The position numbers and the translations under genes were made by a program. Of a DNA stretch of 37,640 nt, positions 3,946 through 37,606 are shown piece after piece. Source of the DNA: a virus. The notes beneath the pieces are model-generated. The model did no database searches. It saw only the letters and a program-made list of their open reading frames with translations, and was not told the DNA's origin. The stretch is from UHGV virus genome UHGV-1707198; one strand, 5' to 3'. Numbering within the stretch: the stretch's first letter is position 1; the number at the start of each line of letters is the position of its first letter.

Positions 3946-4523
3946 TTCATGTGCAGCTTGGCGGCCCTATGGCCAAACATTTTGGCCGCCACTGGCATCT
4001 AAAGGTGCGTAATACAAAACAGGCTCTGGATTTAATTGAGGCCAACAAGCCTGGGTTTAAAGCATGGATGAAGCGCAATATCAAAACCTATGACAGATAC
4101 CACATCCAGATCACCAATAAACAGGGCCACAAGTGGTCTGTGGACGAGAGTGAATATCAGATGATGGGGCAGTCTGACAATATTGCAAAAATCCGCATTA
4201 CCCCTGTTCCGCGAGGAAGTGGTGGATCTGCTTTTGGATGGTTTCAGACGGTTGTTGGAGCAGTATTAATGGTTGCCTCGATATGGGTGCCCGCTCTTGC
4301 GCCTCTCGGTTTGTCACTGATGATGGGCGGTATAGCGCAAATCATATCTCCGCAAGCCACTAACGAAAGTGTGAGGCAGGCGGATAACTCGAACTCTTAT
4401 TACTTTGATGGACCTCAAAACACAACAAACCAGGGGAACCCTGTACAGCTTATCTATGGCGAGGAAATTTTAGTTGGCTCACAGGTCGTGAGTTCTTCTA
4501 TCACCATCGACCAGCTTATGTAA
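3933..4523 (+). CDS. tail assembly protein, lambda gpI-like
   Basis: 196 aa, GTG start overlapping the K stop; hydrophobic Gly-rich C-terminal half; called by position between K and J. Confidence 0.55.
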   Translation: MSELVHVQLGGPMAKHFGRHWHLKVRNTKQALDLIEANKPGFKAWMKRNIKTYDRYHIQITNKQGHKWSVDESEYQMMGQSDNIAKIRITPVPRGSGGSAFGWFQTVVGAVLMVASIWVPALAPLGLSLMMGGIAQIISPQATNESVRQADNSNSYYFDGPQNTTNQGNPVQLIYGEEILVGSQVVSSSITIDQLM

Positions 4524-4540
4524 TCAAGGATTTTTTGGAC

Positions 4541-7500
4541 ATGGAACAGTTCAAGAAGAAAAAATTACCGCTTCTTATTGCCGGTGCTGGTGGCAAGAAA
4601 AGTAAAAGCTCCAGCCGTACCCCGGTTGAAGCTGATGATACTGTCAATTCTCGTGCTATGGCAGCCATCCTCGACCTTCTTGGCGAGGGGGTTATCGGTG
4701 GCCTGGTAAATGGCGCAAAGTCGATCTTCATCGACGATTTACCGATCTTGAATGAAGATGGCTCTTCCAACTTCAGCGGTATTACATGGGATTTTCGTGA
4801 CGGCTCACAAGATCAGACGCCAATGGCTGGTTTTGATTTTGTCGAAACGCCTAAGTCCGTAAATATTCAGCTTAAAAAAACACACGACGTTACGGTTTCA
4901 ATCGATAACGATGAAGCTGATCGCGTTCGTGTCATCATGAAATTCCCCTCTTTACGTAGCGTTGATAAAAGCTCTGGCGATACAAATGGCACTACGGTGA
5001 AGTACAAATTCCAGATCGCCAACGCAGACGCAACATTTTCTGATGTAGTGGCAGAAGGTGAGAAAAGCGTTGATATCACGCTAACGGCAAAGAAAACCGG
5101 CGTGTATTACCGTAGCTATGAGCTGAAACTGCCTAAGCCTGGTCGTGCATACAAGGTTAGGGTGATTCGTCTTACAGATGATAATAGTAGCCAGTACCTC
5201 TACAACGACACATGGGTTGATTCCATCGGTGAGATTGTCGACACGCCAATGAACTACCCTAACTCTGCTCTTGTTGGCTTGAAGGTCAATTCAGAGCAGT
5301 TTGGTAGCACAATGCCTTCCCGTTCGTATTTGGTGCGCGGTATCAAAATCCGAGTACCGTCAAACTACAACGAATACACCAATACTTATGTCGGCGTATG
5401 GGACGGTACTTTTAAGCTGTTGTCTTCTTCAAACCCTGCGTGGATTCTCTACGATTTGCTTACCAATACTCGGTATGGTCTTGGGCAATTTGTGTCGGAA
5501 TCCATGATTGACCTCGGCCAGCTCTACCAGATTGGTCGATATTGTGACGAAGAGGTCGATGATGGCTTTGGGGGTAAAGAGAAACGCTTTGCAATCAATA
5601 CGCAGATCACCAGTCGACAAGACGCATACCGATTAATTCAGGATATTGCCGGTGCATTCCGCGGCATGGTGTTTTGGGCTGGTGGCATGGTTAACATCAT
5701 GCAGGATAGCCCATCAGATCCGGTAATGATGTTTACCAACTCCAACGTCAAAGATGGACTGTTTACCTATAAAGGTTCTGCGCGTAAAGATCGCCCATCC
5801 GTTGCGCTCGTAACCTACAACAACAAGGAGGACGGTTATAAGCAAAACATCGAGTACGTTGAAGATCAGGACGCAATGCGCCGTTATGGTGAGCGTAAAA
5901 CAGAAGTCGTAGCATTTGGATGTACAAGCCGAGGCCAGGCTCACCGAGTTGGTTTGTGGCTTTTGTATACCGCCAGAATGGAGTCGGATGTAATTACATT
6001 TACTGCCGGCTTAGACGCCTCATTTCTGATGCCCGGTGAAACCGTTCTGATTCAGAACAAATATCGTGCAGGTAAACGTAACTCCGGTCGAATTGTGGAG
6101 TTTACCAAAAACAGCATCACTCTCGATGCGCCTGTGTCGTTAGCTAAAAGCGGCAGCTTTATTCGGATATTGAATCAGGAAGGCAAAATCGTTGAACGCG
6201 ATGTTCTTGAAACTGGCGAAAACATAACAAAGGTTACGTTTTCAAAAGCCCTGTCGTCAGCGGAAACGCCTGTTTTGAACGGTGTCTGGACAATTACAGA
6301 ACCAGATCTCGAACCTATGCGCGTTCGCATCGTTAACATCGCGCAGGGGGAAACGCCGGGTAGCTTTGACATCACCGCTGTTGAGAACAATCCGTCTAAA
6401 TATGAGGCAATCGACAATGGTGCAACGCTGATCCCGCAGAATACGACGGTATTGGACCCAACTTACTCCAAGCCATCTAATCTGCAAATCACTGAAGGGA
6501 CTTATCTCTCAAGCCCGGGCAACCTGTCAGTAAAACTGACTGCAACATGGGAAGGAAAATCTCCAGAGTATTGGATCAGTTGGCGACGTTCTGATGAAAA
6601 CAATGTATCGAACTGGCAATCGGCGCGTGTAACCGAAGAGCAATACGAAATCGTTAATGTCGCGGAGAATGGACGCTACGACTTCCAACTGTATGCGGTT
6701 TCATTCAACGGTAAAAAAACAGAGATTATCAGTACCGTTTATCAGGTGTTGGGCACAATGACACCGCCGGATGCCCCAACGTCATTAACGGCCGTTGGAG
6801 ACTATCGTAATGTGATACTGAATTGGGTTAATCCAGATTCGGTAGACCTTGATCACATTAATGTTTACGCATCCCAGACCAACAATCTGGATACGGCGAA
6901 ACTGATCGCAGAGTCTGCAAGCACCACCTTTACACATGCTGGTCTTGGGGATAGCGAAACGTGGTATTACTGGGTTCGAGCATCGAACAAGCGAGGTATG
7001 TTAAGCCCTCCGAACTCAAACTTGGGTACAGAGGCGACAACTCGCGATGTACTGTCGTTCCTGGCTGGCAAAATTACATCTTCCGAGCTTGGTCAGGCTC
7101 TGCTTGAGGACATCAACAGCAAAGCCTCTCAAGAAGCAGTTGACGAGTTAAATGAGCATATCAACCAGAGCGTCGAATCTTTGGAGGGGTCGGTAAACGA
7201 CGTTAAGGAAGATATAGCTGAATTAGATAAGCAGTTCAGCGATAACCTCGCGGGTTTTGAAATAAAATTCAACGAGCGTAGCGATGCTTTGGAGAACGCA
7301 CAAACCGAGCTTAAAGGTGAGGTTTCGGCAACGATCGACAAGGTCAATGAAGCGTTTGAAAAAATTGATGCTACTGATGCTGCAATTGTTGAAATCGAAA
7401 ACACCGTATCTGAACACGATAAAGCTCTCGCTAATACAGTCGAGGCAATAAAGGCTGCAAGAGATGAAGCGGCGGCTCTTATTGCTAAGGAAAGCGAGGC

Positions 7501-9357: not shown

Positions 9358-12300
9358 ATGTGGTACAGGGAAGGTACTATCACATTTACACAGGGCAGCA
9401 ATACTCTGGTTGGGGCAGGGACAGCCTGGAACGTAACAGCTAATGGTGTGTTGCCGGGGATGATCGTCATTGGCCCCGACAATAAGCTGTATGAGATCAA
9501 GCGCGTAACCAGTGATACGAACATTGTTCTCTCAGAACCCTATACCGGCGAAACTCAGTCTGAAGTTCCGTGCCGAATCATTACGACCTATGAAGGCGAC
9601 TTAACACAGTTTAGCGCGCGCTTTACAGCACTAATGTCGCGTATGTCGGCTGATTCCAAGTCCATGCGCAGTTGGTTGACTGCTCTGGATGAGGTGACAA
9701 TCGAGCGTGAAGACGGTACAGAAGTGACCGTTAAGCCGCTAATGCAGATCGTCAACGAGCACAACGAAAACGTTGAGTGGTATAAAAATAACACTGACGC
9801 GATTGATGCTGCTGGCGACAAAGCTCGTGAGGCGGCGGCCAGTGCTGCCGCAGCAGCAGAAAGCGCCAATACCGCTGGAGAAAAAGCCTCTCAAGCGTCT
9901 CAAAGTGCATCCGCTGCAGAGTCCTCAAAAAGCGCGGCGGCCACCAGTGCCGGTGCCGCGAAAACGTCTGAAACGAATGCTGCAGCGTCACAAAAATCTG
10001 CAGCCACTTCTGCATCCACCGCGACCACGAAGGCGTCAGAAGCTGCCACCTCAGCCCGGGATGCGGCGGCCTCAAAAGAGGCAGCGAAATCATCAGAAAC
10101 GAGCGCAGCCTCGAGCGCCAGTAATGCCGCTTCCTCGGCAACGGCGGCAGGAAATTCCGCGAAGGCGGCAAAAACGTCCGAGACGAACGCCAGGTCTTCT
10201 GAAACGGCAGCGGGACAGAGCGCCTCGGCTGCGGCAGGCTCAAAAACAGCGGCTGCGTCGTCTGCCAGTGCCGCGTCAACAAGTGCCGGGCAGGCCTCAG
10301 CCAGTGCCACCGCCGCCGGAAAATCGGCAGAAAGTGCCGCATCATCTGCTTCAACAGCCACAACGAAGGCTGGCGAAGCCACTGAACAGGCCAGCGCAGC
10401 AGCGAGGTCTGCTTCCGCAGCGAAGACATCCGAAACGAACGCGAAAGCGTCGGAAACCCGTGCAGAATCCTCAAAAACGGCAGCCGCATCGTCCGCCAGT
10501 TCGGCAGCGTCATCGGCATCATCTGCGTCTGCTTCAAAAGATGAGGCGACCAGACAGGCGTCAGCAGCGAAGGGCAGCGCCACGACGGCATCCACGAAAG
10601 CAACAGAGGCGGCAGGCAGTGCGACGGCAGCATCTCAGAGCAAAACTGCTGCTGAATCCGCTGCGACCCGTGCGGAAGCTGCTGCTGATCGTGCTGAAGA
10701 GATTGCCGGTGCAGTTGCGATGGAAGACGCAAGCCTTACAACTAAAGGTGTTGTGAAACTTAGCAGTGCTGTCGACAGCACCAGTGAATCGCTGGCCGCA
10801 ACGCCAAAAGCAGTTAAAGTAGTCAATGACAATGCGAACAGCAGGGTGCCATCTAACCGAAAAATTAACGGGAAAGCACTGACTGCGGATATCACATTAA
10901 CGCCGAAAGATATTGGTACTTTAAATTCAATAACGATGTCTTTCTCTGGCGGGGCCGGGTGGTTCAAACTGGCTACTGTTACAATGCCACAAGCGAGTTC
11001 CATCGTTTACATCGCATTGATTGGTGGCGCTGGTTACAACGTCGGCTCCCCACATCAGGCAGGCATTTCAGAACTGGTTCTACGAGCAGGCAATGGAAAC
11101 CCCAAAGGGATTACAGGTGCTTTGTGGAAGCGTACAGCTGTCGGATTAACGAATTTCGCCTGGATCAACACATCCGGCGATACATATGATATTTACGTTG
11201 AAATTGGCAATTATGCGACGAGTGTAAATATCCATTGGGATTGTACTGCAAATGCGTCAGTTTCTGTTTATACATCGCCAACATATTCAGCGAGTAAGCC
11301 TTCCAGCGTTACCGATGGTGTTGTTTATACGATGTATAGCACACATCAGAAACCGACGCCGTTAGATATTGGAGCACTGCCAACAACCGGAGGAACAGTT
11401 TCAGGTCCGTTGTCTGTTACTGGTGGGATCACCGGAACATTAAATGGTAATGCAAGTACAGCAACGAAATTGCAGACGGCAAGATCTATCGGTGGAGTTG
11501 GTTTCGACGGTTCTGCAAATATCAACCTTCCAGGTGTAAACACTACGGGTAATCAGAACACCACTGGTAATGCTGCAACTGCTACAAAACTTCAGACTGC
11601 AAGAAAAATATCCGGTGTTCCATTTGATGGTTCTACTGATATCACTTTAACCGCTGCGCATGTTGCCGCTTTCGCAAGAAGGGCAACAGGGTCATATGCG
11701 GATGCTGATGGTGGCGTGCCGTGGAATGCTGAATCTGGTGCTTACAATGTAACTAGAACAGGCGACAGTTATATTCTTGCCAACTTTTATACCGGTGTAG
11801 GTAGTTGCCGTACGCTTCAAATTAAAGCTCACTATAAAAATGGTGGTCTGTTCTACCGTTCCTCAAGAGATGGCTATGGTTTTGAAAGTGGTTGGGAGCA
11901 GGTTTACACGACTGGATTTATGCCTCAGCCGGCTGATATAAACGCACCAACCGCTGCCGCTGGATGGTTAAATAGTGGTAACGGAACGGCATTTACGACT
12001 GCTCAATTTATAACTTGGCTAAACAATCAGGGGGCATTTACAAACAAACATTGGATCGCACGGTGCTCATGGACTTACGCCAACAATAATTATATAGACG
12101 ACACTGGTTGCGGTAGGATCGATCTATCTGGTTCCGTGATTGAGGTGTTTAGTAATAAGGCAACAAGCCACTACACTATTCGTGTTACAACGACAACAAC
12201 ATCAGGTCATGGTGGTGTTAATAATGCGGAATTTATTTATGTGTACAATGGGAGTGATTATGCGCCAGGCTGGCGTCGTTCTTATAACACTAGAAACAAA

Positions 12301-13656
12301 CCAACAGCTTCTGATGTAGGAGCATTACCGCTTTCAGGTGGCACATTATCTGGAGGGTTGACGTCTTCTGGTGAGATCGTTTCAAAATATGCAAATGGTT
12401 TCCGCATTGCTTACGGTAACTACGGGTTCTTTATCCGTAATGACGGCGGCAGCACATATTTCATGCTAACAGCATCAGGAGATACGTTAGGTTCATGGAA
12501 CAGTTTGCGACCGATTATAATTAATAATAGCAGCGGTGTTGTGTCTATTGGTAATGGACTAAATGTTACTGGTGGCGTAAATGGTAGCTTGAATGGCAAT
12601 GCTTCAACAGCTACGAAGTTGCAAACAGCGAGAAACATCAATGGTGTTAAGTTTGATGGTTCAGGTGATATCAATATTAATACATTGGTTTCTCGTGGTC
12701 GAGTTACGGCTTTAAGCGGTTCTACTCAAGGTACTGCTGGCATTCAAATGTACGAGGCGTACAACAATAGCTACCCGACCACGTATGGCAACGTATTGCA
12801 CATGAAAGGTGCGAGTGCTGCTGGTGAGGGCGAGTTGCTTATTGGCTGGAGTGGTACGAGCGGTGCACATGCGCCGGTTTTCATTCGCTCCAGAAGAGAT
12901 ACCACTGATGCGGCATGGTCAGCGTGGGCGCAGGTATATACCGCTAAGGATTCAATCCCTGGTGTGAATACAACCGGTAATCAGAATACTACTGGTAATG
13001 CCGCAACAGCCACAAAATTGCAGACAGCAAGGAAAATTGCTGGTGTGGCGTTTGATGGCTCTGCCGATATTACTTTGACTGCGGCTAACCTTAATGCTTA
13101 TACGAAAACAGAGGTAACAAACCTTCTAAGTTCCTATGCAAGCAGATCATCACTGACAGGCTATAGTGGCAACCTGGATATTATTGCTGAAACACTGGTT
13201 GTCAAATCAGGCGGTAGTGGAGGGTTTGCTATATGGGATATTGGCACAACTACTAGCGGTGCCAATATGTACATTGATCCAAACCCAGGTATCAATACAG
13301 TTTGGCGTTCAACATCTTCAAGGCGCTATAAAAAGGATATTGAAACATTACAAGATCGATATGCTGATGAACTTTTGTCATTAAGACCTGTTTGGTATCG
13401 TTCAATTTGTCGAGGTGACCGAAAGGATTGGGGGTATTACGGCCTTATTGCTGAAGAGGTTGGTGAGATTGCCCCGCAATATGTCCATTGGCGTGAACCA
13501 ACAAATAATGATTCTCCAGGAGATATTTCCTCAAATGGTATGGTCGCTGAAGGAGTGATGTATGAGCGTTTGGTTGTACCACTCATTCATCATATTCAGC
13601 AATTGACCAAAAGGGTTGAGGAGCTTGAAACGAAGTTAAATTCACCTAAAGAATAA
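9358..13656 (+). CDS. side tail fibre protein with C-terminal S74-type intramolecular chaperone domain
   Basis: 1432 aa; GGAG ribosome-binding site. Ala/Ser/Thr-rich degenerate repeats (KTSETNA, SASAA) at residues about 160-460, like lambdoid Stf-type fibres as I recall them. Repeated GNASTATKLQTARxIxGVxFDGSxDI fibre motifs. C-terminus (DIETLQDRY...GLIAEEVGEIAPQYVHW) resembles the self-cleaving chaperone of T5 pb1 and endosialidase-type fibres. Confidence 0.8.
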   Translation: MWYREGTITFTQGSNTLVGAGTAWNVTANGVLPGMIVIGPDNKLYEIKRVTSDTNIVLSEPYTGETQSEVPCRIITTYEGDLTQFSARFTALMSRMSADSKSMRSWLTALDEVTIEREDGTEVTVKPLMQIVNEHNENVEWYKNNTDAIDAAGDKAREAAASAAAAAESANTAGEKASQASQSASAAESSKSAAATSAGAAKTSETNAAASQKSAATSASTATTKASEAATSARDAAASKEAAKSSETSAASSASNAASSATAAGNSAKAAKTSETNARSSETAAGQSASAAAGSKTAAASSASAASTSAGQASASATAAGKSAESAASSASTATTKAGEATEQASAAARSASAAKTSETNAKASETRAESSKTAAASSASSAASSASSASASKDEATRQASAAKGSATTASTKATEAAGSATAASQSKTAAESAATRAEAAADRAEEIAGAVAMEDASLTTKGVVKLSSAVDSTSESLAATPKAVKVVNDNANSRVPSNRKINGKALTADITLTPKDIGTLNSITMSFSGGAGWFKLATVTMPQASSIVYIALIGGAGYNVGSPHQAGISELVLRAGNGNPKGITGALWKRTAVGLTNFAWINTSGDTYDIYVEIGNYATSVNIHWDCTANASVSVYTSPTYSASKPSSVTDGVVYTMYSTHQKPTPLDIGALPTTGGTVSGPLSVTGGITGTLNGNASTATKLQTARSIGGVGFDGSANINLPGVNTTGNQNTTGNAATATKLQTARKISGVPFDGSTDITLTAAHVAAFARRATGSYADADGGVPWNAESGAYNVTRTGDSYILANFYTGVGSCRTLQIKAHYKNGGLFYRSSRDGYGFESGWEQVYTTGFMPQPADINAPTAAAGWLNSGNGTAFTTAQFITWLNNQGAFTNKHWIARCSWTYANNNYIDDTGCGRIDLSGSVIEVFSNKATSHYTIRVTTTTTSGHGGVNNAEFIYVYNGSDYAPGWRRSYNTRNKPTASDVGALPLSGGTLSGGLTSSGEIVSKYANGFRIAYGNYGFFIRNDGGSTYFMLTASGDTLGSWNSLRPIIINNSSGVVSIGNGLNVTGGVNGSLNGNASTATKLQTARNINGVKFDGSGDININTLVSRGRVTALSGSTQGTAGIQMYEAYNNSYPTTYGNVLHMKGASAAGEGELLIGWSGTSGAHAPVFIRSRRDTTDAAWSAWAQVYTAKDSIPGVNTTGNQNTTGNAATATKLQTARKIAGVAFDGSADITLTAANLNAYTKTEVTNLLSSYASRSSLTGYSGNLDIIAETLVVKSGGSGGFAIWDIGTTTSGANMYIDPNPGINTVWRSTSSRRYKKDIETLQDRYADELLSLRPVWYRSICRGDRKDWGYYGLIAEEVGEIAPQYVHWREPTNNDSPGDISSNGMVAEGVMYERLVVPLIHHIQQLTKRVEELETKLNSPKE
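11532..11660 (+). repeat. intragenic direct repeat copy A (fibre motif block)
   Basis: About 130 bp at roughly 80% identity to 12961..13090; both encode GVNTTGNQNTTGNAATATKLQTARKI(S/A)GV(P/A)FDGS. Confidence 0.7.
12961..13090 (+). repeat. intragenic direct repeat copy B (fibre motif block)
   Basis: Partner of 11532..11660; a third, shorter related copy lies at about 12590..12690. Confidence 0.7.
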
Positions 13657-15238: not shown

Positions 15239-15931
15239 ATGAAGACTCCGAGAGGCATTCGTAATAATAACCCCGGTAATCTTGATAAAGGATCACCGTG
15301 GCAAGGTCTGGTTGCGAATCCAGACGAACCGCGCTTTTGCACGTTTAAAGACCCTGTTTGGGGGATTCGTGCGCTGGCGGTGACTCTAATTACCTACCAC
15401 GACAAACGTCGCGCAAAAGACGGCTCAAGTATCGATACCATTCGTGAAGTTATTGAACGTTGGGCACCGCCGAATGAAAACAACACTGACGCCTACATTA
15501 ATGAGGTGTCTAAAGCCGTTGGTGTAACCGCAGACATGATCATCGATCTGCATGATTACGACATCCTTCGACCTTTGGTTGAGGCAATCATTCGCCATGA
15601 GAATGGGCGAGGTCCGCTAAAAACGCTGAACACCTGGTATGCGGCAGAAGTTATTGAGGAAGGTCTGCGTCGAGCTGGCGTCGTTAAGCCGGTGAAAACC
15701 GTGAAGGCTGTTCCTGTAACTAAAGAAACCGCAGGCGCAACTGTTACAGCAGGTATTGGTCTGGCACAGCTGGCCGATGTTATGCCACAGGTTTCCGCTG
15801 CTATGGATAAAGCACAAGGTCATATCTCTAGCGGGGATACAGTACGCATCATCTTCGGTATTGCCACTATTGTTGTGGCAGGATTCATTGCCTGGTCGCA
15901 GGTAAGAAAACACCAGAAAGGGATGGTCTAA
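15239..15931 (+). CDS. putative endolysin / cell-wall hydrolase with C-terminal membrane anchor
   Basis: AGGAG ribosome-binding site before the ATG at 15239. Sits between the holin-like gene and the spanins. GIRNNNPGN motif near the N-terminus, which I associate with a phage cell-wall hydrolase family but cannot verify here; C-terminal hydrophobic helix IIFGIATIVVAGFIAW. Confidence 0.4.
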   Translation: MKTPRGIRNNNPGNLDKGSPWQGLVANPDEPRFCTFKDPVWGIRALAVTLITYHDKRRAKDGSSIDTIREVIERWAPPNENNTDAYINEVSKAVGVTADMIIDLHDYDILRPLVEAIIRHENGRGPLKTLNTWYAAEVIEEGLRRAGVVKPVKTVKAVPVTKETAGATVTAGIGLAQLADVMPQVSAAMDKAQGHISSGDTVRIIFGIATIVVAGFIAWSQVRKHQKGMV

Positions 15932-15932
15932 T

Positions 15933-16184
15933 ATGCTAGGCAGCCTGATGACAAAGCTAAAAGTTGCTTTGATTACGCTGGCTGCCGTTCTTTTCGTTCT
16001 GGTCGGCGCTTACACGATGGGCGGGAATGCGGCGCGACGAGCAATGGAAGAGAAGGCAAAACAGGAAGACAGAAAACGACTTCAAAGCACAGTGGATGTC
16101 AAAAATGAAACGGTTAATGAAGTGCGACAAAAAGATGCCTCTGGTGTTCATCGCGAGCTGTTTGATAAATGGGTGCGTGATTAA
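15933..16184 (+). CDS. putative i-spanin (Rz-like)
   Basis: 83 aa; N-terminal transmembrane helix then a charged helical region; starts 1 nt after the endolysin stop. Confidence 0.5.
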   Translation: MLGSLMTKLKVALITLAAVLFVLVGAYTMGGNAARRAMEEKAKQEDRKRLQSTVDVKNETVNEVRQKDASGVHRELFDKWVRD

Positions 16185-16341
16185 GACGCAGGCTCCAGGC
16201 GTGCTATTCTGCGATGCTGCAAATCCTATCTATGTGAGTAGAGAGGATTTTATGACTGAGGAAACGGAGCGACAGTTGCTTATCCACAATACGATAGGTG
16301 AAAGGCTGTGTGAGTGGGGGGCACCTGAACTGAGTCGATGA
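16105..16341 (+). CDS. putative o-spanin lipoprotein (Rz1-like), overlapping the i-spanin in another frame
   Basis: Alternative-frame ORF overlapping the 3' end of the i-spanin gene and extending past it; signal peptide with lipobox FIASC or LINGC; start codon chosen by eye. Confidence 0.45.
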   Translation: MKRLMKCDKKMPLVFIASCLINGCVIKTQAPGVLFCDAANPIYVSREDFMTEETERQLLIHNTIGERLCEWGAPELSR

Positions 16342-16550
16342 TTGATCTCAGTTTACCTTTTATCCTAAAGATGGCATCTTCACTCATATACACGCCTGTT
16401 CACTCAAGCTCATGTTGAATCATTTAGTAATTTGATGTAGATTTATTAGGCATCCACGTAAGTGGGCACATACAGGCTACGCATTCTCGTAGCCTTCAAC
16501 CCCGAGAGGGGTGCCGCAATGACACTTGTGTTAACGGCTAAGGTGGATAT

Positions 16551-16970
16551 ATGCTAAATTATCATGACAATACGCGTTCTATGCAGACGATCCGCACCAA
16601 TACTGCGGTTATCGACAGCTTTCCTATGCGTATTCACAACAGTGAAGACGCAGTAGAAGTGCGACGTATGTTGTGCCGTGAATCAGCTAACCGCCAGCAC
16701 TTCATCGTCACTTTTAAGAGCGATGTGGCGCGTGCCGAAAAGGTCTCTAATTCTACGTCACTGGTTAAACCGTTGGCCGAGGTTGTCGCTAACGGTAAAC
16801 GAACCTCTTTTGTTTTAGATGTTGCTGAACAATATCCTGACTTGAAGTGTTTAGATCGTGATATTTCTTCACGAATCAAACAAGTTGTAGAGTCTTTTAT
16901 GAAGAAATTCTGTAAAATCGATGATATGGAACCATCAACGGCACAGAATACTTCATGGCACCATCTCTAA
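16551..16970 (+). CDS. hypothetical protein
   Basis: 139-aa ORF with AAGGTGGA ribosome-binding site; overlaps the next gene by 16 nt. Confidence 0.4.
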   Translation: MLNYHDNTRSMQTIRTNTAVIDSFPMRIHNSEDAVEVRRMLCRESANRQHFIVTFKSDVARAEKVSNSTSLVKPLAEVVANGKRTSFVLDVAEQYPDLKCLDRDISSRIKQVVESFMKKFCKIDDMEPSTAQNTSWHHL

Positions 16971-17728
16971 TTGGTCAGGCGAACAGATTAATCCCTGAAA
17001 TAGAAGACTACAGCAAGGTCTTGTCTGAAATGCCGAGAGCGACGAGAATTATCGCTCTCGGTGAGTTCTATTTTATCTCCCGAGGTTTCGATCTAATTCG
17101 ATTTACCGAATACGAGCTTGTTGATTCGGCCTATGAACGCTGTATTGTTGGCGAGTGTCTTGAGTCATGTGATCCTGATTACCAAGAGCAGGAAGTTAAG
17201 CGACTCAAACGTGCTGGTTACACACCTCTTGAGATAGGAGCAGAAATTGAATCCTACAAGTTGCATGTGGGGCAGCCAGTCCAAACAGTCTTCCGCGTGG
17301 CCTACTGCGAGTTTCCAATCAAGGATAAATCTGGAGTAAAAGTCAGCGCCAAGCAGATTAGAGGGGTTTTTACTCATGCTGATTATATGGGATTAGGCAT
17401 CGCAAGTTTTGCTTACCTTTATCTCGTAGATAAGTATCAGTACTTGGTTTGCGATACGTTACAGACGATAAAAGGCGCAACTCTTTGGGCTGTGAGTATG
17501 CGCAAACATGGACTGGTCGAAATTTACGATACGAAGAACGAAAATTTTATAGAGGAATTGGGTGAGGATGCCTGTGGCGTAAGTGGTTTTATTCCGTGGG
17601 ATATCGGTAAGTCTGACGGAGGCCAGATGCGAAGACGTGAAGAGTGGGGGACTAATAAAATCAATCTCACCCCAGGTGCTTGTACTCATATAGTGAACAT
17701 TCTGAGTAAACGATCTATGAATCAATAA
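16955..17728 (+). CDS. hypothetical protein, possibly acetyltransferase-like
   Basis: 257 aa; the HADYMGLGIASFAY segment loosely resembles a GNAT acetyl-CoA-binding motif; weak. Confidence 0.35.
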   Translation: MAPSLIGQANRLIPEIEDYSKVLSEMPRATRIIALGEFYFISRGFDLIRFTEYELVDSAYERCIVGECLESCDPDYQEQEVKRLKRAGYTPLEIGAEIESYKLHVGQPVQTVFRVAYCEFPIKDKSGVKVSAKQIRGVFTHADYMGLGIASFAYLYLVDKYQYLVCDTLQTIKGATLWAVSMRKHGLVEIYDTKNENFIEELGEDACGVSGFIPWDIGKSDGGQMRRREEWGTNKINLTPGACTHIVNILSKRSMNQ

Positions 17729-17755
17729 ACCCGCTACGGCGGGTTTGTTGTTATT
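17727..17755 (+). terminator. rho-independent terminator
   Basis: AAACCCGC-tacg-GCGGGTTT hairpin followed by GTTGTTATT. Confidence 0.55.
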
Positions 17756-17760
17756 AAGCC

Positions 17761-17780
17761 CACCTATGTACCTATCATTA
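17761..17780 (-). promoter_or_regulatory. recurrent motif, inverted orientation
   Basis: Reverse complement reads TAATGATAGGTACATAGGTG; lies just after the terminator at 17727..17755. Confidence 0.3.
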
Positions 17781-17876
17781 AACCTTTACACCGCAGCCGT
17801 AGGCATTTAGGCTATATCACATATAAGAAAACAAGTTGTTTCAGACGATAATTATATACGCAAAGGGAACTCTCCA

Positions 17877-18545
17877 ATGACCAAGATCTTTGTGGTTGGC
17901 GGCACAAAGGGCGGGCCTGGCAAATCCACCGTTGCCCAGCAAATTGCCGTTTGCCTGAAAGTCAAAAAGAAGAAGAAGGTTTATATCACTGATATAGATA
18001 TTCAGCGCACGACAACAAGCTGGTGTGAAGACCGTCGACAGAACGAAGACCTTGAGCTGATTCCTTTTGCATACGTTCAGGATGACATCATTAAGCACCT
18101 AAAATCGCTTCAGGGTAGAGCTGAGTTTGTAGTGGTAGATGCTGGTGGCTTTGACTCCGAAATTCAGCGACAAGCGATGCTGATGGCCGACGTTATCATT
18201 ATCCCGCTTCGTCCTAAGCGTCGTGATTTGAAATCTCTGCGTGACATTGATCCTATTATCGACAATGTTCGTAATGTAAACGATAAAGTGAAGGTCCGCG
18301 CGGTCATGAACCAGTGCCCGGCTTTGCCATCACAAGTGTCTCGCATTCTGGCGGCTAAAGAGATTGTTGAGACGTTTGGCATCGAGTCTGCGCCAGTCAA
18401 TCTATATAACCGCAACGTCTATGATGATGCGGAAGAGTCTGGTCGTTCTATCTTTGAAATGACCGGTAGCGAGCGCGACAAAAAGGCGGAAGCCGAGTTT
18501 GAAGAATTTGTAGATTATCTGTTGAGTCTGGAGGAAGAAGAATAA
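17877..18545 (+). CDS. ParA/ParF-type partition ATPase
   Basis: 222 aa; N-terminal deviant Walker A (VVGGTKGGPGKST); small size typical of type Ib partition ATPases; AAAGGGA ribosome-binding site. Confidence 0.7.
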   Translation: MTKIFVVGGTKGGPGKSTVAQQIAVCLKVKKKKKVYITDIDIQRTTTSWCEDRRQNEDLELIPFAYVQDDIIKHLKSLQGRAEFVVVDAGGFDSEIQRQAMLMADVIIIPLRPKRRDLKSLRDIDPIIDNVRNVNDKVKVRAVMNQCPALPSQVSRILAAKEIVETFGIESAPVNLYNRNVYDDAEESGRSIFEMTGSERDKKAEAEFEEFVDYLLSLEEEE

Positions 18546-18904
18546 TGTCCATGAAAATGGGTGACCTAGCAAAGCGCAAAGAGCCTGATGCACCGGCTAA
18601 GAACACAACTCCTTTGCGCCAACCAGTCAGACCACAGGGACGCCCGACTCGTGGCAAAGAGAAAATTAAAAGCCGCACAATGTCACTGGAAGACGAATAC
18701 TTCGAACTGCTGGAGATGATGAAGTTCATCCCTCGCTTCGAGAAGTTCACTCGTTCTGACGTGATTCGAGCAGCCATTTTCCATCTGGCAGAGAAGTCAC
18801 CGCAGGAAATCGAGGACATCGTGAAGCTTAACGAGGCGATCACAGCTGCCGACGTTACGATGCGTACCGATGAAATTAAACGAGAGTTGATGAAGAAAGG
18901 TTGA
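18545..18904 (+). CDS. putative partition DNA-binding protein (ParG/ParB-like)
   Basis: 119 aa, start overlaps the ParA stop (TAATG); basic N-terminus; function inferred from operon position. Confidence 0.4.
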   Translation: MSMKMGDLAKRKEPDAPAKNTTPLRQPVRPQGRPTRGKEKIKSRTMSLEDEYFELLEMMKFIPRFEKFTRSDVIRAAIFHLAEKSPQEIEDIVKLNEAITAADVTMRTDEIKRELMKKG

Positions 18905-18937: not shown

Positions 18938-18955
18938 ATTAAAGGATTGATACTA

Positions 18956-20650
18956 ATGGAATCGATAGAATCATTTCTAAAAAATTTTCTAGTTTCAGAT
19001 CATCGGGTTGCCGTCATAAAAGGAGATTGGGGCGTTGGTAAAACTCATTATTGGAATAGTTTTTATACTAAGCATTCTGAAGGATTAGATTTTAATGCAT
19101 ATTCGTATGTTTCTTTGTTTGGGGTTAACTCTATTGGTGATATTAAAAAAACTCTTTATCATTGTGCCACACCAATTAATGAAAAGAAATATAAAGAACT
19201 AATTTTATCTGAAACGGATCGAACTATGATTCGTTATAGAAATGGGTTTTGGGGATGGTTGAAATACAACTCCTTGTCAAAATTTTTAATACATTTCGGA
19301 AAGATCGATTTTTTTGGGTTCAAAACAGATAACCTGCTGTCATCTCTTGAGTATAAATTTGTTAATAATTATTTGGTTTGTATTGATGATGTTGAAAGAA
19401 AAGGTAATTCGCTAGAAGTTAAAGAAATTATGGGGGTAATTGATGAATTAGCAAGAAGAAAAGGTTGCAAAGTTGTTCTAATTTTAAATGAAGATAATTT
19501 ACATGATGAAACTGCAAAAAAACAGTTTTTAGAGTACAGAGAAAAAGTAATTGATGTCGAAATAAAATACGATCCTACGCCTGAGAAGAACTTACGTAAA
19601 GTTTTTTATGAAACTGATTCTGATTTTCTTTTGTTAAAAGTCTTAGCAAATGACTTAGGCATTAAAAATATCCGTATATTAAATAAAATAAAAACATCTC
19701 TGGTTAATCTTAGGAATGAGCTAAGCTTGGCAGAGGATAAGGTTAGAGAAAGCTTTATCAATAGATTGGTTCTGTTTTCAGTGGTTTACTATTCTGGTGT
19801 TCCAGGTGTTGATTATGCCTTGTTTAAAGAATCAATTAAAAACATACATGTATTTGATTACATGTTAGATGATAAAAAGGATGATTCTGTATATTCATTT
19901 ATTAATAGTCTTGATGTTATTTATGAACGAGCGGAAATTGCTTTCGATGATGACATAGATTTTTATCTCAAGAATGGTTATCTTTCTACTGAAAGCAATA
20001 TTCGAGGTATAATAGAAGAAAAAAATAAACAATATAAAGAACACAAGGCTTTATGTGATGTTAACAATGTTTGGGATATTTTTAGTGACTCATTCAAGGA
20101 CAATGAATCTGAGTTTATTTCTAAGATAAAATGTGTAATTAACGACAATCTTTCACACATACCTGTTGCTCACTTCATAGGCTTGATTGATATCTTAAAT
20201 AGATTGGAGATTGATTGTGATAGTTATATAGAGGCATATGCAGATGCCTTTGTTAGCCAAGATGATGCTTATACTGCTTTTCGGAATTTGTATGTAGAGA
20301 TATTTGGTAACGAAAAGTTAGGTCTGCTAATTCAAAAAAAATTGATGGATAAGAAGCCTGAAGAGACTAATTTAGAGAATGTTTTATACAAAATAATTGA
20401 AGGCAAATTTAATCATAGTGACATAGCATATCTTAACAGTTTCTCTGAAGATGATTATTTAAAGTGGATATTATCCCGCAATCAGGATGCTTTGGATTTA
20501 GTGAGAAAGGGGTTGCTCAGATTCAAAAGTATGCAAGAACTAACAGAAGAACAGCAAAAAATCACGAATAAAGCAATAGGTGCATTAACGAAACTGGCCT
20601 CTAGATCAAGTCTTAACAAACTACGTGTGAGCAGATTGCTTAATAATTAA
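18956..20650 (+). CDS. KAP-family-like P-loop NTPase
   Basis: About 565 aa from the ATG at 18956 (AAGGA ribosome-binding site 9 nt upstream). Walker A GDWGVGKT fits the G-x-W-G-x-GKT KAP signature; Walker B-like LVCIDDVER about 110 residues later. Strongly AT-rich and Lys/Asn/Ile-rich, unlike neighbouring genes. Confidence 0.55.
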   Translation: MESIESFLKNFLVSDHRVAVIKGDWGVGKTHYWNSFYTKHSEGLDFNAYSYVSLFGVNSIGDIKKTLYHCATPINEKKYKELILSETDRTMIRYRNGFWGWLKYNSLSKFLIHFGKIDFFGFKTDNLLSSLEYKFVNNYLVCIDDVERKGNSLEVKEIMGVIDELARRKGCKVVLILNEDNLHDETAKKQFLEYREKVIDVEIKYDPTPEKNLRKVFYETDSDFLLLKVLANDLGIKNIRILNKIKTSLVNLRNELSLAEDKVRESFINRLVLFSVVYYSGVPGVDYALFKESIKNIHVFDYMLDDKKDDSVYSFINSLDVIYERAEIAFDDDIDFYLKNGYLSTESNIRGIIEEKNKQYKEHKALCDVNNVWDIFSDSFKDNESEFISKIKCVINDNLSHIPVAHFIGLIDILNRLEIDCDSYIEAYADAFVSQDDAYTAFRNLYVEIFGNEKLGLLIQKKLMDKKPEETNLENVLYKIIEGKFNHSDIAYLNSFSEDDYLKWILSRNQDALDLVRKGLLRFKSMQELTEEQQKITNKAIGALTKLASRSSLNKLRVSRLLNN

Positions 20651-29580: not shown

Positions 29581-29602
29581 GATAAGTATTTACTTACTTA
29601 TC
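29581..29602 (+). promoter_or_regulatory. recurrent motif, dyad copy at the head of the non-coding leader before the tRNAs
   Basis: GATAAGTA-tttact-TACTTATC; the 8-bp arms are exact reverse complements. Confidence 0.5.
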
Positions 29603-30349
29603 TTTTGTGTATAAGATGACTTTGTTTTCGTTGAGACGCGACTGTTTGAACTTAAATACAAGTGCAAACGAAGAAGTCTATCTGGCAGTAGCCTAATAAG
29701 CCAAACACCAGCGAGGTCAGTTTCCAGCCTCGTTACCGAAATGGGACACACTGAGCGAGTGTGATTGCAGAACGCAGGAGGGAACATGAATGTTCCCTCC
29801 GATGAAGTAACAGAATGGGCGGTTGGTATATTTTCAACTCCATATGACTCCCGGATTCTTAGCCACTGACCGCCCATCCTGTTACGTCATTTTGTTCAAT
29901 TATGTCGTTTATACTGGGTTAAAAAGCGGCGACGTAGCCCGGCTGGTATGGTTAGCCAGCACACAACGTTGAGGCCATTACATTTTTATCAATTCTAAGG
30001 TTCTATTCACAGAGATACCGGCGAGCGTTGATATGTAACATGTTGGGCAAACATTCAATCGGAGTAGTGGCCTCAACGTTGTGAAGACGGGATTGTTGTG
30101 TAGGTTTAACCACTGTTGCCATTGGTGCCTGTTTTCACAACAAATGATTCCATACATCACATTGTATAAATTACAAAGTAGGTGCTGTCCTCAGAAACAT
30201 CATCTACTTAAAGATTTTGCCTTCTACTATTGAGCGAAGTCGAAAGCGTCTGGCACTAACGAAAAGTGCAAGTAGCGGTGCGTTTCCTGGCAGAAACTAA
30301 ACCGTCGCGATTGGCACTGTTGAGTAATAAATACTGGCAGTGCTGAATT

Positions 30350-31003: not shown

Positions 31004-31157
31004 GACACAGCGTTGAGCGGTTTGGCCTTTTAATCAACTCGATTAAGACTCCGCTAACATAAACCAGACCGCTCAACGCTGTGATAGATAATTACGGCAG
31101 ACGTTCTTAACCATAGCTTGCTAACATCCTAGCAACACTTTTTTCAGCGCAAAATTC

Positions 31158-37339: not shown

Positions 37340-37555
37340 ATGACGACTACTGCACTGCAAAATGAAAAAAATCCTTCTGATTACCTTGTTTGCAAGTGGT
37401 GCGGCAAATCATTTCACTATTTTAAGTCCCATGTAGCCAATGGTAATTGCGAGGGCATTCCTGAGTCAGTAAAAGATGCCGATCCTGACACCGTACTGAA
37501 AATGTACACAACGCAGTTTCCAGATGAACCAACGCTATCGAAAAAGGCACTTTGA
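37340..37555 (+). CDS. hypothetical protein (possible small zinc-binding protein)
   Basis: 71 aa with CxxC ... H ... NC spacing (CKWCGKSFHYFKSHVANGNC). Confidence 0.3.
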   Translation: MTTTALQNEKNPSDYLVCKWCGKSFHYFKSHVANGNCEGIPESVKDADPDTVLKMYTTQFPDEPTLSKKAL

Positions 37556-37606
37556 ACCGCCCCGGAAATCCTGGAGACTAAACTCCCTGAGAAAGAGGTA
37601 AACAGG

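Follow-up and report, generated by a model that had tools for sequence, protein, structure and literature searches.

A mobile two-gene cassette encoding a predicted GNAT-fold protein and a small basic partner in a polymorphic slot between the lysis and partition modules of SSU5-like phage-plasmids

Results

The stretch of DNA analyzed here (the window; 37,640 nucleotides of the viral genome UHGV-1707198) is an SSU5-like phage-plasmid, and it carries two plus-strand genes, here called A and B, between its lysis and partition modules. Gene A (positions 16551 to 16970) starts with ATG and encodes a small basic protein of 139 amino acids, the partner protein of the pair, which belongs to PHROG 2594; gene B (16955 to 17728), also with an ATG start, encodes a 257-amino-acid protein of PHROG 3307 with a predicted, divergent GNAT fold and an acidic N-terminal domain. 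The two genes share 16 nt (16955 to 16970, plus strand), in which the end of A (..WHHL, stop) overlaps the start of B (MAPSL..). An earlier note on this DNA, made from its letters alone, had described two reading frames of these lengths overlapping by 16 nt and had placed them between the spanin genes and a strong terminator. Both descriptions hold, the former to the nucleotide; Rz/Rz1 lie upstream, and a hairpin (17723 to 17750) stands at the end of B.

According to the annotations of SSU5, Cyrano, and pECOH89, homologues of holin, endolysin, Rz, and Rz1 lie 5′ of the cassette and ParA (17877 to 18545) lies downstream of it, and Pfam matched CbiA/ParA on a 222-amino-acid protein at the ParA position. 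The order of genes is thus tail fiber, holin, endolysin, Rz/Rz1, A, B, ParA, a small protein at the ParB position, and replication genes; SSU5, PhiR41_1, and Klebsiella p4727 have this same gene order. Over the cassette and its flanks, pECOH89 (NC_023916.1) and ~18 other ~110-kb Escherichia coli plasmids match the window at 99.9% identity. A foreign origin is not marked out by base composition, the GC content being 0.42 to 0.46 in the cassette and 0.47 to 0.50 in the flanks.

The 16-nt overlap was retained in 7 of the 10 tabulated pairs, the other three having gaps of 0, 15, and 22 nt, and at P0033-type loci the gap is about 10 nt by stop-to-stop ORF coordinates (13 in the overlap table). Because no Shine-Dalgarno sequence was found 5′ of B, the arrangement fits translational coupling of B to A. 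The deposited start of the SSU5 copy, SSU5_032, is at 29641, and the conserved MAPSL start lies 48 nt upstream, overlapping SSU5_031 by 16 nt. Since this upstream start matches all relatives, the annotated one is probably too far downstream, and we place the SSU5 copy of B at 29593 to 30342 (5001 to 5750 of locus L002). The start called in locus L015, which gives a B protein of 231 amino acids versus 247 in L016, is likewise probably too far downstream.

By comparative alignment of the regions upstream of A, we found a sigma-70-like promoter candidate (16415 to 16443, plus strand) with TTGAAT as the −35 element (16415 to 16420), a 17-nt spacer, and TAGATT as the −10 element (16438 to 16443). 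This 29-mer is unique; it scores 8/12 against the consensus, which is under the threshold of our consensus scan, and that scan returned no site in positions 15900 to 18100. The pattern TTGnnn-17-TAGATT precedes A in 24 of 41 distinct upstream regions, representing about eight sequence variants, with a spacer of 18 nt instead of 17 in one case. The promoter-like site is carried by SSU5-like elements, a Citrobacter prophage, a Pectobacterium integrative element, and a degraded copy in Sodalis, as well as by Rouxiella, Buttiauxella, and Kluyvera sichuanensis contigs.

The promoter candidate is followed on the plus strand by a leader (5′ untranslated region) of ~100 nt (16450 to 16550), the conserved core of which (~16473 to 16550) includes the Shine-Dalgarno sequence of A (AAGGTGG, 16540 to 16546). 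The leader is kept in seven elements of differing context, even with A and B ~30% identical, and in the main clade the promoter-like site and 80 nt of conserved leader travel with the A/B pair. The leader of UHGV-1707198 has a predicted folding energy of −41.3 kcal/mol (z = −3.1). RNAalifold paired the Shine-Dalgarno sequence and the start codon; those pairs are invariant, and one hairpin pair shows a compensatory change. Because there is almost no covariation, we regard a predicted structure that would sequester the Shine-Dalgarno sequence and the start codon as only a lead. Rfam gave no match over positions 15800 to 18200. Palindromes just 3′ of the −10 element, considered as allele-specific operators, were set aside because pMTY13926_NA1 joins a leader of the UHGV-1707198 type to a very different A/B allele.

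On its right, the swapped unit described below ends in an intrinsic terminator (17723 to 17758, plus strand), in which the hairpin at 17723 to 17750 (a 12-bp stem and a 4-nt loop, then GUUGUUAUU) is joined to a U-rich tail. The hairpin has a predicted folding energy of −19.7 kcal/mol (z = −4.96), and none of 200 shuffled sequences folded as well; a simple terminator scan of positions 15900 to 18100 did not list it. Past the terminator, at 17769 to 17779, lies an exact minus-strand copy of AATGATAGGTA, which the earlier note had correctly recognized as an inverted copy of a recurrent motif. This motif belongs to the backbone and is not part of the cassette: the copy marks the right edge of the hotspot, at the exact point where backbone homology returns, and exact minus-strand copies also lie 3′ of B in SSU5, PhiR41_1, pECOH89, L015, and L016. 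With at most one mismatch, the window holds seven copies (14816, 17769 [minus strand], 26062, 26933, 29578, 36856 [minus strand], and 37258) versus 0.61 expected. Several copies lie 40 to 75 nt 5′ of gene starts, and repeat families D3 and D5 are made up of longer copies related to it; AATGATAGGTA may be an element-specific promoter or operator.

Comparison of related elements gave good support for the view that positions 16415 to 17758 form one autonomous accessory cassette in a polymorphic slot that separates the lysis module from the partition module. The holin, endolysin, ParA, ParB-position protein, and DnaB are 82 to 100% identical between SSU5-like elements, whereas A is 31 to 61% and B 30 to 36% identical. 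In the comparison with pMTY13926_NA1, DNA identity is 97% up to position 16558, at the start codon of A, and returns at 17770, past the terminator. DNA similarity to SSU5, L016, L026, and the P1-like locus L020 (79 to 85%) ends each time at 16784 to 16786. Exchange breakpoints therefore lie at the A start codon and past the terminator or inside A at codon 78. The latter position implies that a conserved N-terminal module of A (codons 1 to 78; 16551 to 16786, plus strand), which is common to other alleles and to solitary A genes of P1-like elements, is shared and that the rest of A is swapped together with B as a block. Consistent with this, residues 1 to 90 of A are 76 to 84% identical in the five closest pairs, and residues 91 to 139 are only 28 to 55% identical, in step with B. 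Blocks are thus exchanged at this hotspot.

Plasmid matches to B were either at least 99% identical (18 records) or less than 60% identical (356 records), with no intermediate alleles, and among complete E. coli genomes the UHGV-1707198 allele was present on plasmids in 20 of 5,426, nearly all at least 99% identical. In PLSDB, ~630 plasmids have the conserved segment that precedes parA, and in at least about 260 of them an A/B pair occupies the main variable slot, beside the partition genes. The main alternative occupant in E. coli is a TacA/TacT pair, a Pfam-confirmed TacA1 antitoxin with a GNAT toxin on the opposite strand, found in Cyrano/pLF82, CMS-2020a, and ~143 PLSDB plasmids; an HhH-domain protein takes the slot in KPC53 and ~94 plasmids, and a 185-amino-acid protein of unknown function does so in pJN2-26. 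The distribution across relatives, which the earlier note had proposed to examine, is thus variable, with replacement by unrelated genes, and contradicts universal conservation as a core gene. The same note had remarked that lambdoid phages commonly carry morons at such a position. As with morons, closely related genomes differ in the presence, absence, or replacement of the pair. The terminator hairpin is strong; the promoter-like site, although conserved in 24 of 41 distinct upstream regions, agrees with the consensus at 8 of 12 positions.

A second variable slot lies just after the par genes. In the window it holds a gene for a 567-amino-acid KAP-family P-loop NTPase (18947 to 20650; Pfam KAP_NTPase, E = 1.4e-5; PADLOC candidate PDC-S49, E = 1.3e-21), and in other elements it holds a DUF2971 protein (pECOH89), a minus-strand gene (PhiR41_1), or three small genes (SSU5). 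The GC content of the NTPase gene is 0.28 to 0.31 versus ~0.47 in its neighbors, and it is probably a recently acquired defense-type gene. The gene directly after parA (18545 to 18904; CYRAN_29 in Cyrano, and 4276 to 4635 of locus L022) is annotated as a putative RelE/ParE toxin in Cyrano. It occupies the ParB position, has no Pfam match, and is 91 to 100% identical across the four SSU5-like elements compared; the toxin label looks unsupported. Elsewhere in the window, a 25-nt inverted repeat near the ends (31 to 55 and 37553 to 37577; TCTCCAGGAAACCCGGGGCGGTTCA and TGAACCGCCCCGGAAATCCTGGAGA) is 88% complementary. Two 20-nt inverted repeats (29962 to 30083 and 31006 to 31083), each 95% complementary and with arms 82 and 38 nt apart, respectively, have the common core CA[AG]CGTTGAG and may be hairpins or binding sites near a regulatory or replication region. 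Diverged internal repeats of 78 to 128 nt (11445 to 13085) inside the 1,432-amino-acid tail fiber ORF (9358 to 13656) are probably repeated fiber domains.

The B protein falls within PHROG 3307 (E = 1.6e-54), a family annotated as being of unknown function. Relatives of B are few, forming 40 clusters at 50% identity in a set of 1.84 billion representatives. Structure-based comparison, a check proposed in the earlier note, led from B to neighbors in the GNAT superfamily and from A to part of a GNAT or HAT1. A highly divergent GNAT fold of mixed α/β type is a well-supported prediction for B, whose best structural neighbors are of the NatD, HAT1, and RimJ/RimL type (protein N-terminal and histone acetyltransferases) and not specifically toxins. 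Sequence methods returned less. NCBIfam and PADLOC (PADLOC-DB v2, E ≤ 1) had no match for B, Pfam gave nothing but noise for B and 34 family members at E ≤ 5, a PDB profile search with B found no GNAT, with chance matches only from PDB profile searches, and hhalign of B with TacT gave a probability of 0.5%. The earlier note had named confident homology to lysis, structural, or partition proteins as evidence against an accessory pair, and the Pfam, NCBIfam, and PDB sequence searches returned no such homology. Our literature search found nothing on the A or B proteins. The PHROG records list both families without a functional annotation and make no mention of the pairing, the fold, or the hotspot context.

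GNAT motif A, Q/R-x-x-G-x-G/A at the β4-α3 junction, binds the pyrophosphate of acetyl-CoA. In the model of B, the segment YMGLGIASF (17384 to 17410, plus strand; residues 144 to 152), which had been singled out in the earlier note as loosely GNAT-like, lies at this position, the junction of a strand (129 to 140) and a helix (149 to 161). The motif A glycines are present in the UHGV-1707198 allele (Y-M-G-L-G-I-A) and in several clades (QSAGLA and RGAGLA) and are missing in other clades (EYEQAKITR and similar), amounting to about a third of the family. The attribution to GNATs thus stands as regards the fold, but the motif does not extend to the whole family, and because the glycines are not conserved, acetyl-CoA binding may not be general in it. 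What is invariant in 48 B-family members is a different set of residues, Q134, Y154, D167, Q170, W178, and W215, and a signature peculiar to the family is [CS]-D-x-x-Q-[TS]-x-x-G-x-x-x-W, the first part of which ([CS]-D-x-x-Q) is C-D-T-L-Q here (17450 to 17464, plus strand; residues 166 to 170), right after a predicted strand (163 to 165). We rejected C166 as a candidate catalytic nucleophile, since several members have Ser in its place. The N terminus, M-x-P-x-L...Y-x-K-x-L, is predicted to be disordered and is conserved even without the gene overlap. The overall pI of B is about 5, and that of its N-terminal domain is 4.2 to 5.1.

The A protein belongs to PHROG 2594 (E = 1.3e-35), likewise annotated as being of unknown function. 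Proteins of the A family are basic, β-rich, and 108 to 140 amino acids long, and their N-terminal domain has a pI of 9 to 10. Pfam, NCBIfam, PADLOC (PADLOC-DB v2, E ≤ 1), and PDB sequence searches gave no match for A. It has no recognizable RHH, HTH, or AbrB DNA-binding domain, and no RHH was present in its structure model; hhalign gave a probability of 0.3% for the A family against Cyrano TacA and no significant match between A and B.

Co-occurrence was determined by running hidden Markov models of the A and B families on all fetched loci (IMG/VR, phage, plasmid, and chromosomal). At loci found through B, A was immediately upstream on the same strand in 19 IMG/VR loci and in all other loci. 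Conversely, 12 of the 18 IMG/VR loci found through A had B, and the other 6, which are P1-like, had A alone; in four of these six, two copies of A diverge around the hot gene. The solitary A genes of the P1-like phages D6 and RCS47 also belong to PHROG 2594. Solitary PHROG 2594 genes, with B absent, lie at 4342 to 5354 of loci L019 and L021, in L061 to L066, and at 3992 to 4342 of L006, and at some P1-like loci one A diverges from hot and the other follows directly after hot, ahead of humD and phd-doc. For a solitary P1-like A protein (P0021), the only matches in the phage collection were A-family genes of SSU5, p4727, PhiR12, and PhiR41_1; no deposited P1-like phage was matched.

The cassette is mobile between phage-plasmids, prophages, and an integrative element. 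A-then-B pairs adjoin an integrase in the Citrobacter prophage, a relaxase and an integrase in the Pectobacterium integrative element, and int in lambdoid PhiR12 phages, and they also occur on ~110-kb Acinetobacter plasmids. In three separate lineages, B is interrupted and A is intact: profile positions 1 to 67 and 64 to 237 of B are on separate ORFs in PhiR12 phages, a stop follows B residue 118 in Kluyvera contigs, and a frameshift follows residue 123 in locus L071. Both genes are degraded in Sodalis. A 66-amino-acid ORF of PhiR12, considered as a third gene, proved to be the N terminus of the broken B gene.

Discussion

The earlier note had suggested a toxin-antitoxin or modification-type accessory pair. 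The accessory nature of the locus is borne out by its replacement in the slot; as to function, we tentatively favor, at somewhat less than even confidence, a toxin-antitoxin-like pair in which B would be the controlled effector and A its partner. This reading takes as its starting points the anatomy of the locus, the modeled fold, the mobility and block swapping of the cassette, the asymmetry of co-occurrence, and the slot in common with TacA/TacT. We favor it because a small gene followed by a larger, coupled one is typical of such systems, because the effector fold matches that of known GNAT toxins, because a real GNAT toxin-antitoxin pair occupies the same Rz1-parA slot, because B is never alone whereas A is tolerated alone and B is the gene that breaks, and because the variable part of A is inherited with B. 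The complementary charges of the N-terminal domains (pI 9 to 10 in A versus 4.2 to 5.1 in B) and the accessory positions next to integrases or a relaxase and on Acinetobacter plasmids are also in its favor. From such features we infer physical binding of A to B, catalysis, toxicity, neutralization, and, indeed, any biological role.

Under the toxin-antitoxin-like reading, B would be a harmful or tightly controlled effector, probably one that transfers an acyl group to a cellular target in the manner of tRNA-acetylating GNAT toxins or N-terminal acetyltransferases. A, made first and in excess, would use its variable C-terminal part to bind and restrain its cognate B, which would be freed when the plasmid is lost or when expression is shut off during infection. 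The divergent alleles on near-identical backbones would then be orthogonal specificity types, kept by competition between related, incompatible phage-plasmids. Several observations count against this reading. No sequence method ties B to GNAT toxins or A to any antitoxin, A is without a recognizable DNA-binding domain of the antitoxin type, the motif A glycines are not conserved, and an acidic protein such as B would be unusual as a tRNA-binding toxin. Moreover, some of the favorable evidence can be read in other ways: a B protein that simply cannot work without A would be expected to give the same asymmetry (B never alone, A sometimes alone), the B pseudogenes could reflect neutral decay or, in single assemblies, sequencing errors, and a hotspot in common with a toxin-antitoxin pair indicates a common niche and not a common function, since HhH and other cargo are found there too.

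All of the comparative evidence also fits a nontoxic enzyme of two subunits or a noncatalytic, GNAT-like binding pair. The first of these, possible but in our estimate on the unlikely side, would make A and B an obligate two-subunit acyltransferase, harmless to its own cell, that modifies a host, phage, or plasmid component for superinfection exclusion, antiphage defense, or counterdefense, with the fast-evolving N-terminal domain of B as its target recognition region; AcrVA5, a GNAT anti-CRISPR protein, and the Rim/Nat N-terminal acetyltransferases would be its counterparts. That the best structural neighbors of B are enzymes of the NatD, HAT1, and RimJ/RimL type, that A also resembles part of a GNAT or HAT1, as in tandem-GNAT enzymes, that B is never found without A, and that the pair occupies accessory positions adjoining integrases all agree with such an enzyme, and alleles that diverge so extremely on conserved backbones are consistent with an arms race. 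Yet no PADLOC defense model (PADLOC-DB v2) was matched, the glycines of motif A are not conserved, we can name no target, and A is kept without B at the solitary-A and broken-B loci, which would be odd for a mere subunit. We think it improbable that B is instead a noncatalytic GNAT-like binder that, with A, sequesters or regulates a host or mobile-element protein without acyl transfer, as in ornithine decarboxylase antizyme or the regulatory GNAT domain of ICL2. The six polar or aromatic residues Q134, Y154, D167, Q170, W178, and W215 are invariant across 48 very divergent members, and, judging from sequence position, they would fall on those strands and helices that make up the GNAT active-site cleft, a pattern suggestive of a conserved site for a ligand or for catalysis.

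A reversal of roles, with the small basic A as the toxin and B as an enzymatic antitoxin, would recall type VII systems and the toxin-first HigBA. A is basic and has a highly conserved N-terminal module, as expected for action on a conserved cellular target, and B is acidic and variable, but A occurs alone in P1-like phage-plasmids, sometimes in two copies, and is intact where B is broken. Because A alone is tolerated, we consider this reversal very unlikely. A core function in the lysis or partition machinery is hardly credible at all: its one point of departure is the position between Rz/Rz1 and parA, and it is excluded by the distribution of the pair. Many SSU5-like elements have the same lysis and par genes but unrelated genes in place of the pair, and the pair also occurs in an integrative element and in integrated prophages, where those modules are missing.

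Clinical Enterobacterales commonly harbor SSU5-like phage-plasmids (pECOH89, pHCM2, pLF82, and relatives), which carry resistance genes, and it is poorly understood how these elements are maintained in a lineage and which one wins when two meet. Should the toxin-antitoxin-like reading be true, the cassette would join a GNAT-fold effector to a partner of a new type, in many alleles that are swapped as blocks. As a toxin-antitoxin or exclusion module whose partners are allele specific, it would widen the range of partners of GNAT toxins by a new type and would offer a simple, testable case in which block-swapped specificity alleles drive competition between phage-plasmids. As a nontoxic modifying enzyme, it would have a target that marks a new site of conflict between phage and host or between plasmids. 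A more specific proposal, which we hold to be doubtful, is that the pair founds a new toxin-antitoxin family, with a GNAT-fold toxin unrecognizable by sequence and a basic, GNAT-like, non-RHH antitoxin, that its orthogonal block-swapped alleles decide the competition between near-identical phage-plasmids, and that the solitary A proteins of P1-like elements act as anti-addiction factors.

Among known systems, the type II GNAT-RHH modules (TacAT, KacAT, and AtaRT) are likewise bicistronic, with the small gene first, tightly coupled, and carried on mobile elements. Their toxins, however, are of ~175 amino acids, whereas B has 257 and an extra acidic N-terminal domain. Pfam recognizes Cyrano TacT above its cutoffs, whereas B has no Pfam match, is without sequence similarity to the Acetyltransf families, and is not recognizable as a GNAT of the Acetyltransf_1, Acetyltransf_7, or Acetyltransf_10 type. 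Their antitoxin is a DUF1778/TacA RHH protein, and A, with no Pfam match and no RHH in its model, is not such a protein. In the slot itself, the TacAT pair is on the opposite strand, whereas A and B are on the plus strand. NatD/Naa40, HAT1, and RimI/J/L, for their part, have only 7 to 12% sequence identity to B, and they differ from the B family in that motif A is not conserved across the latter, which has its own signature and a conserved, disordered M-A-P-x-L N terminus. With phage morons, the cassette has in common a conserved promoter-like site and a terminator of its own, insertion between conserved modules, and presence, absence, or replacement between near-identical genomes. It differs from them in consisting of two genes with many divergent alleles at one fixed slot, as opposed to a sporadic insertion.
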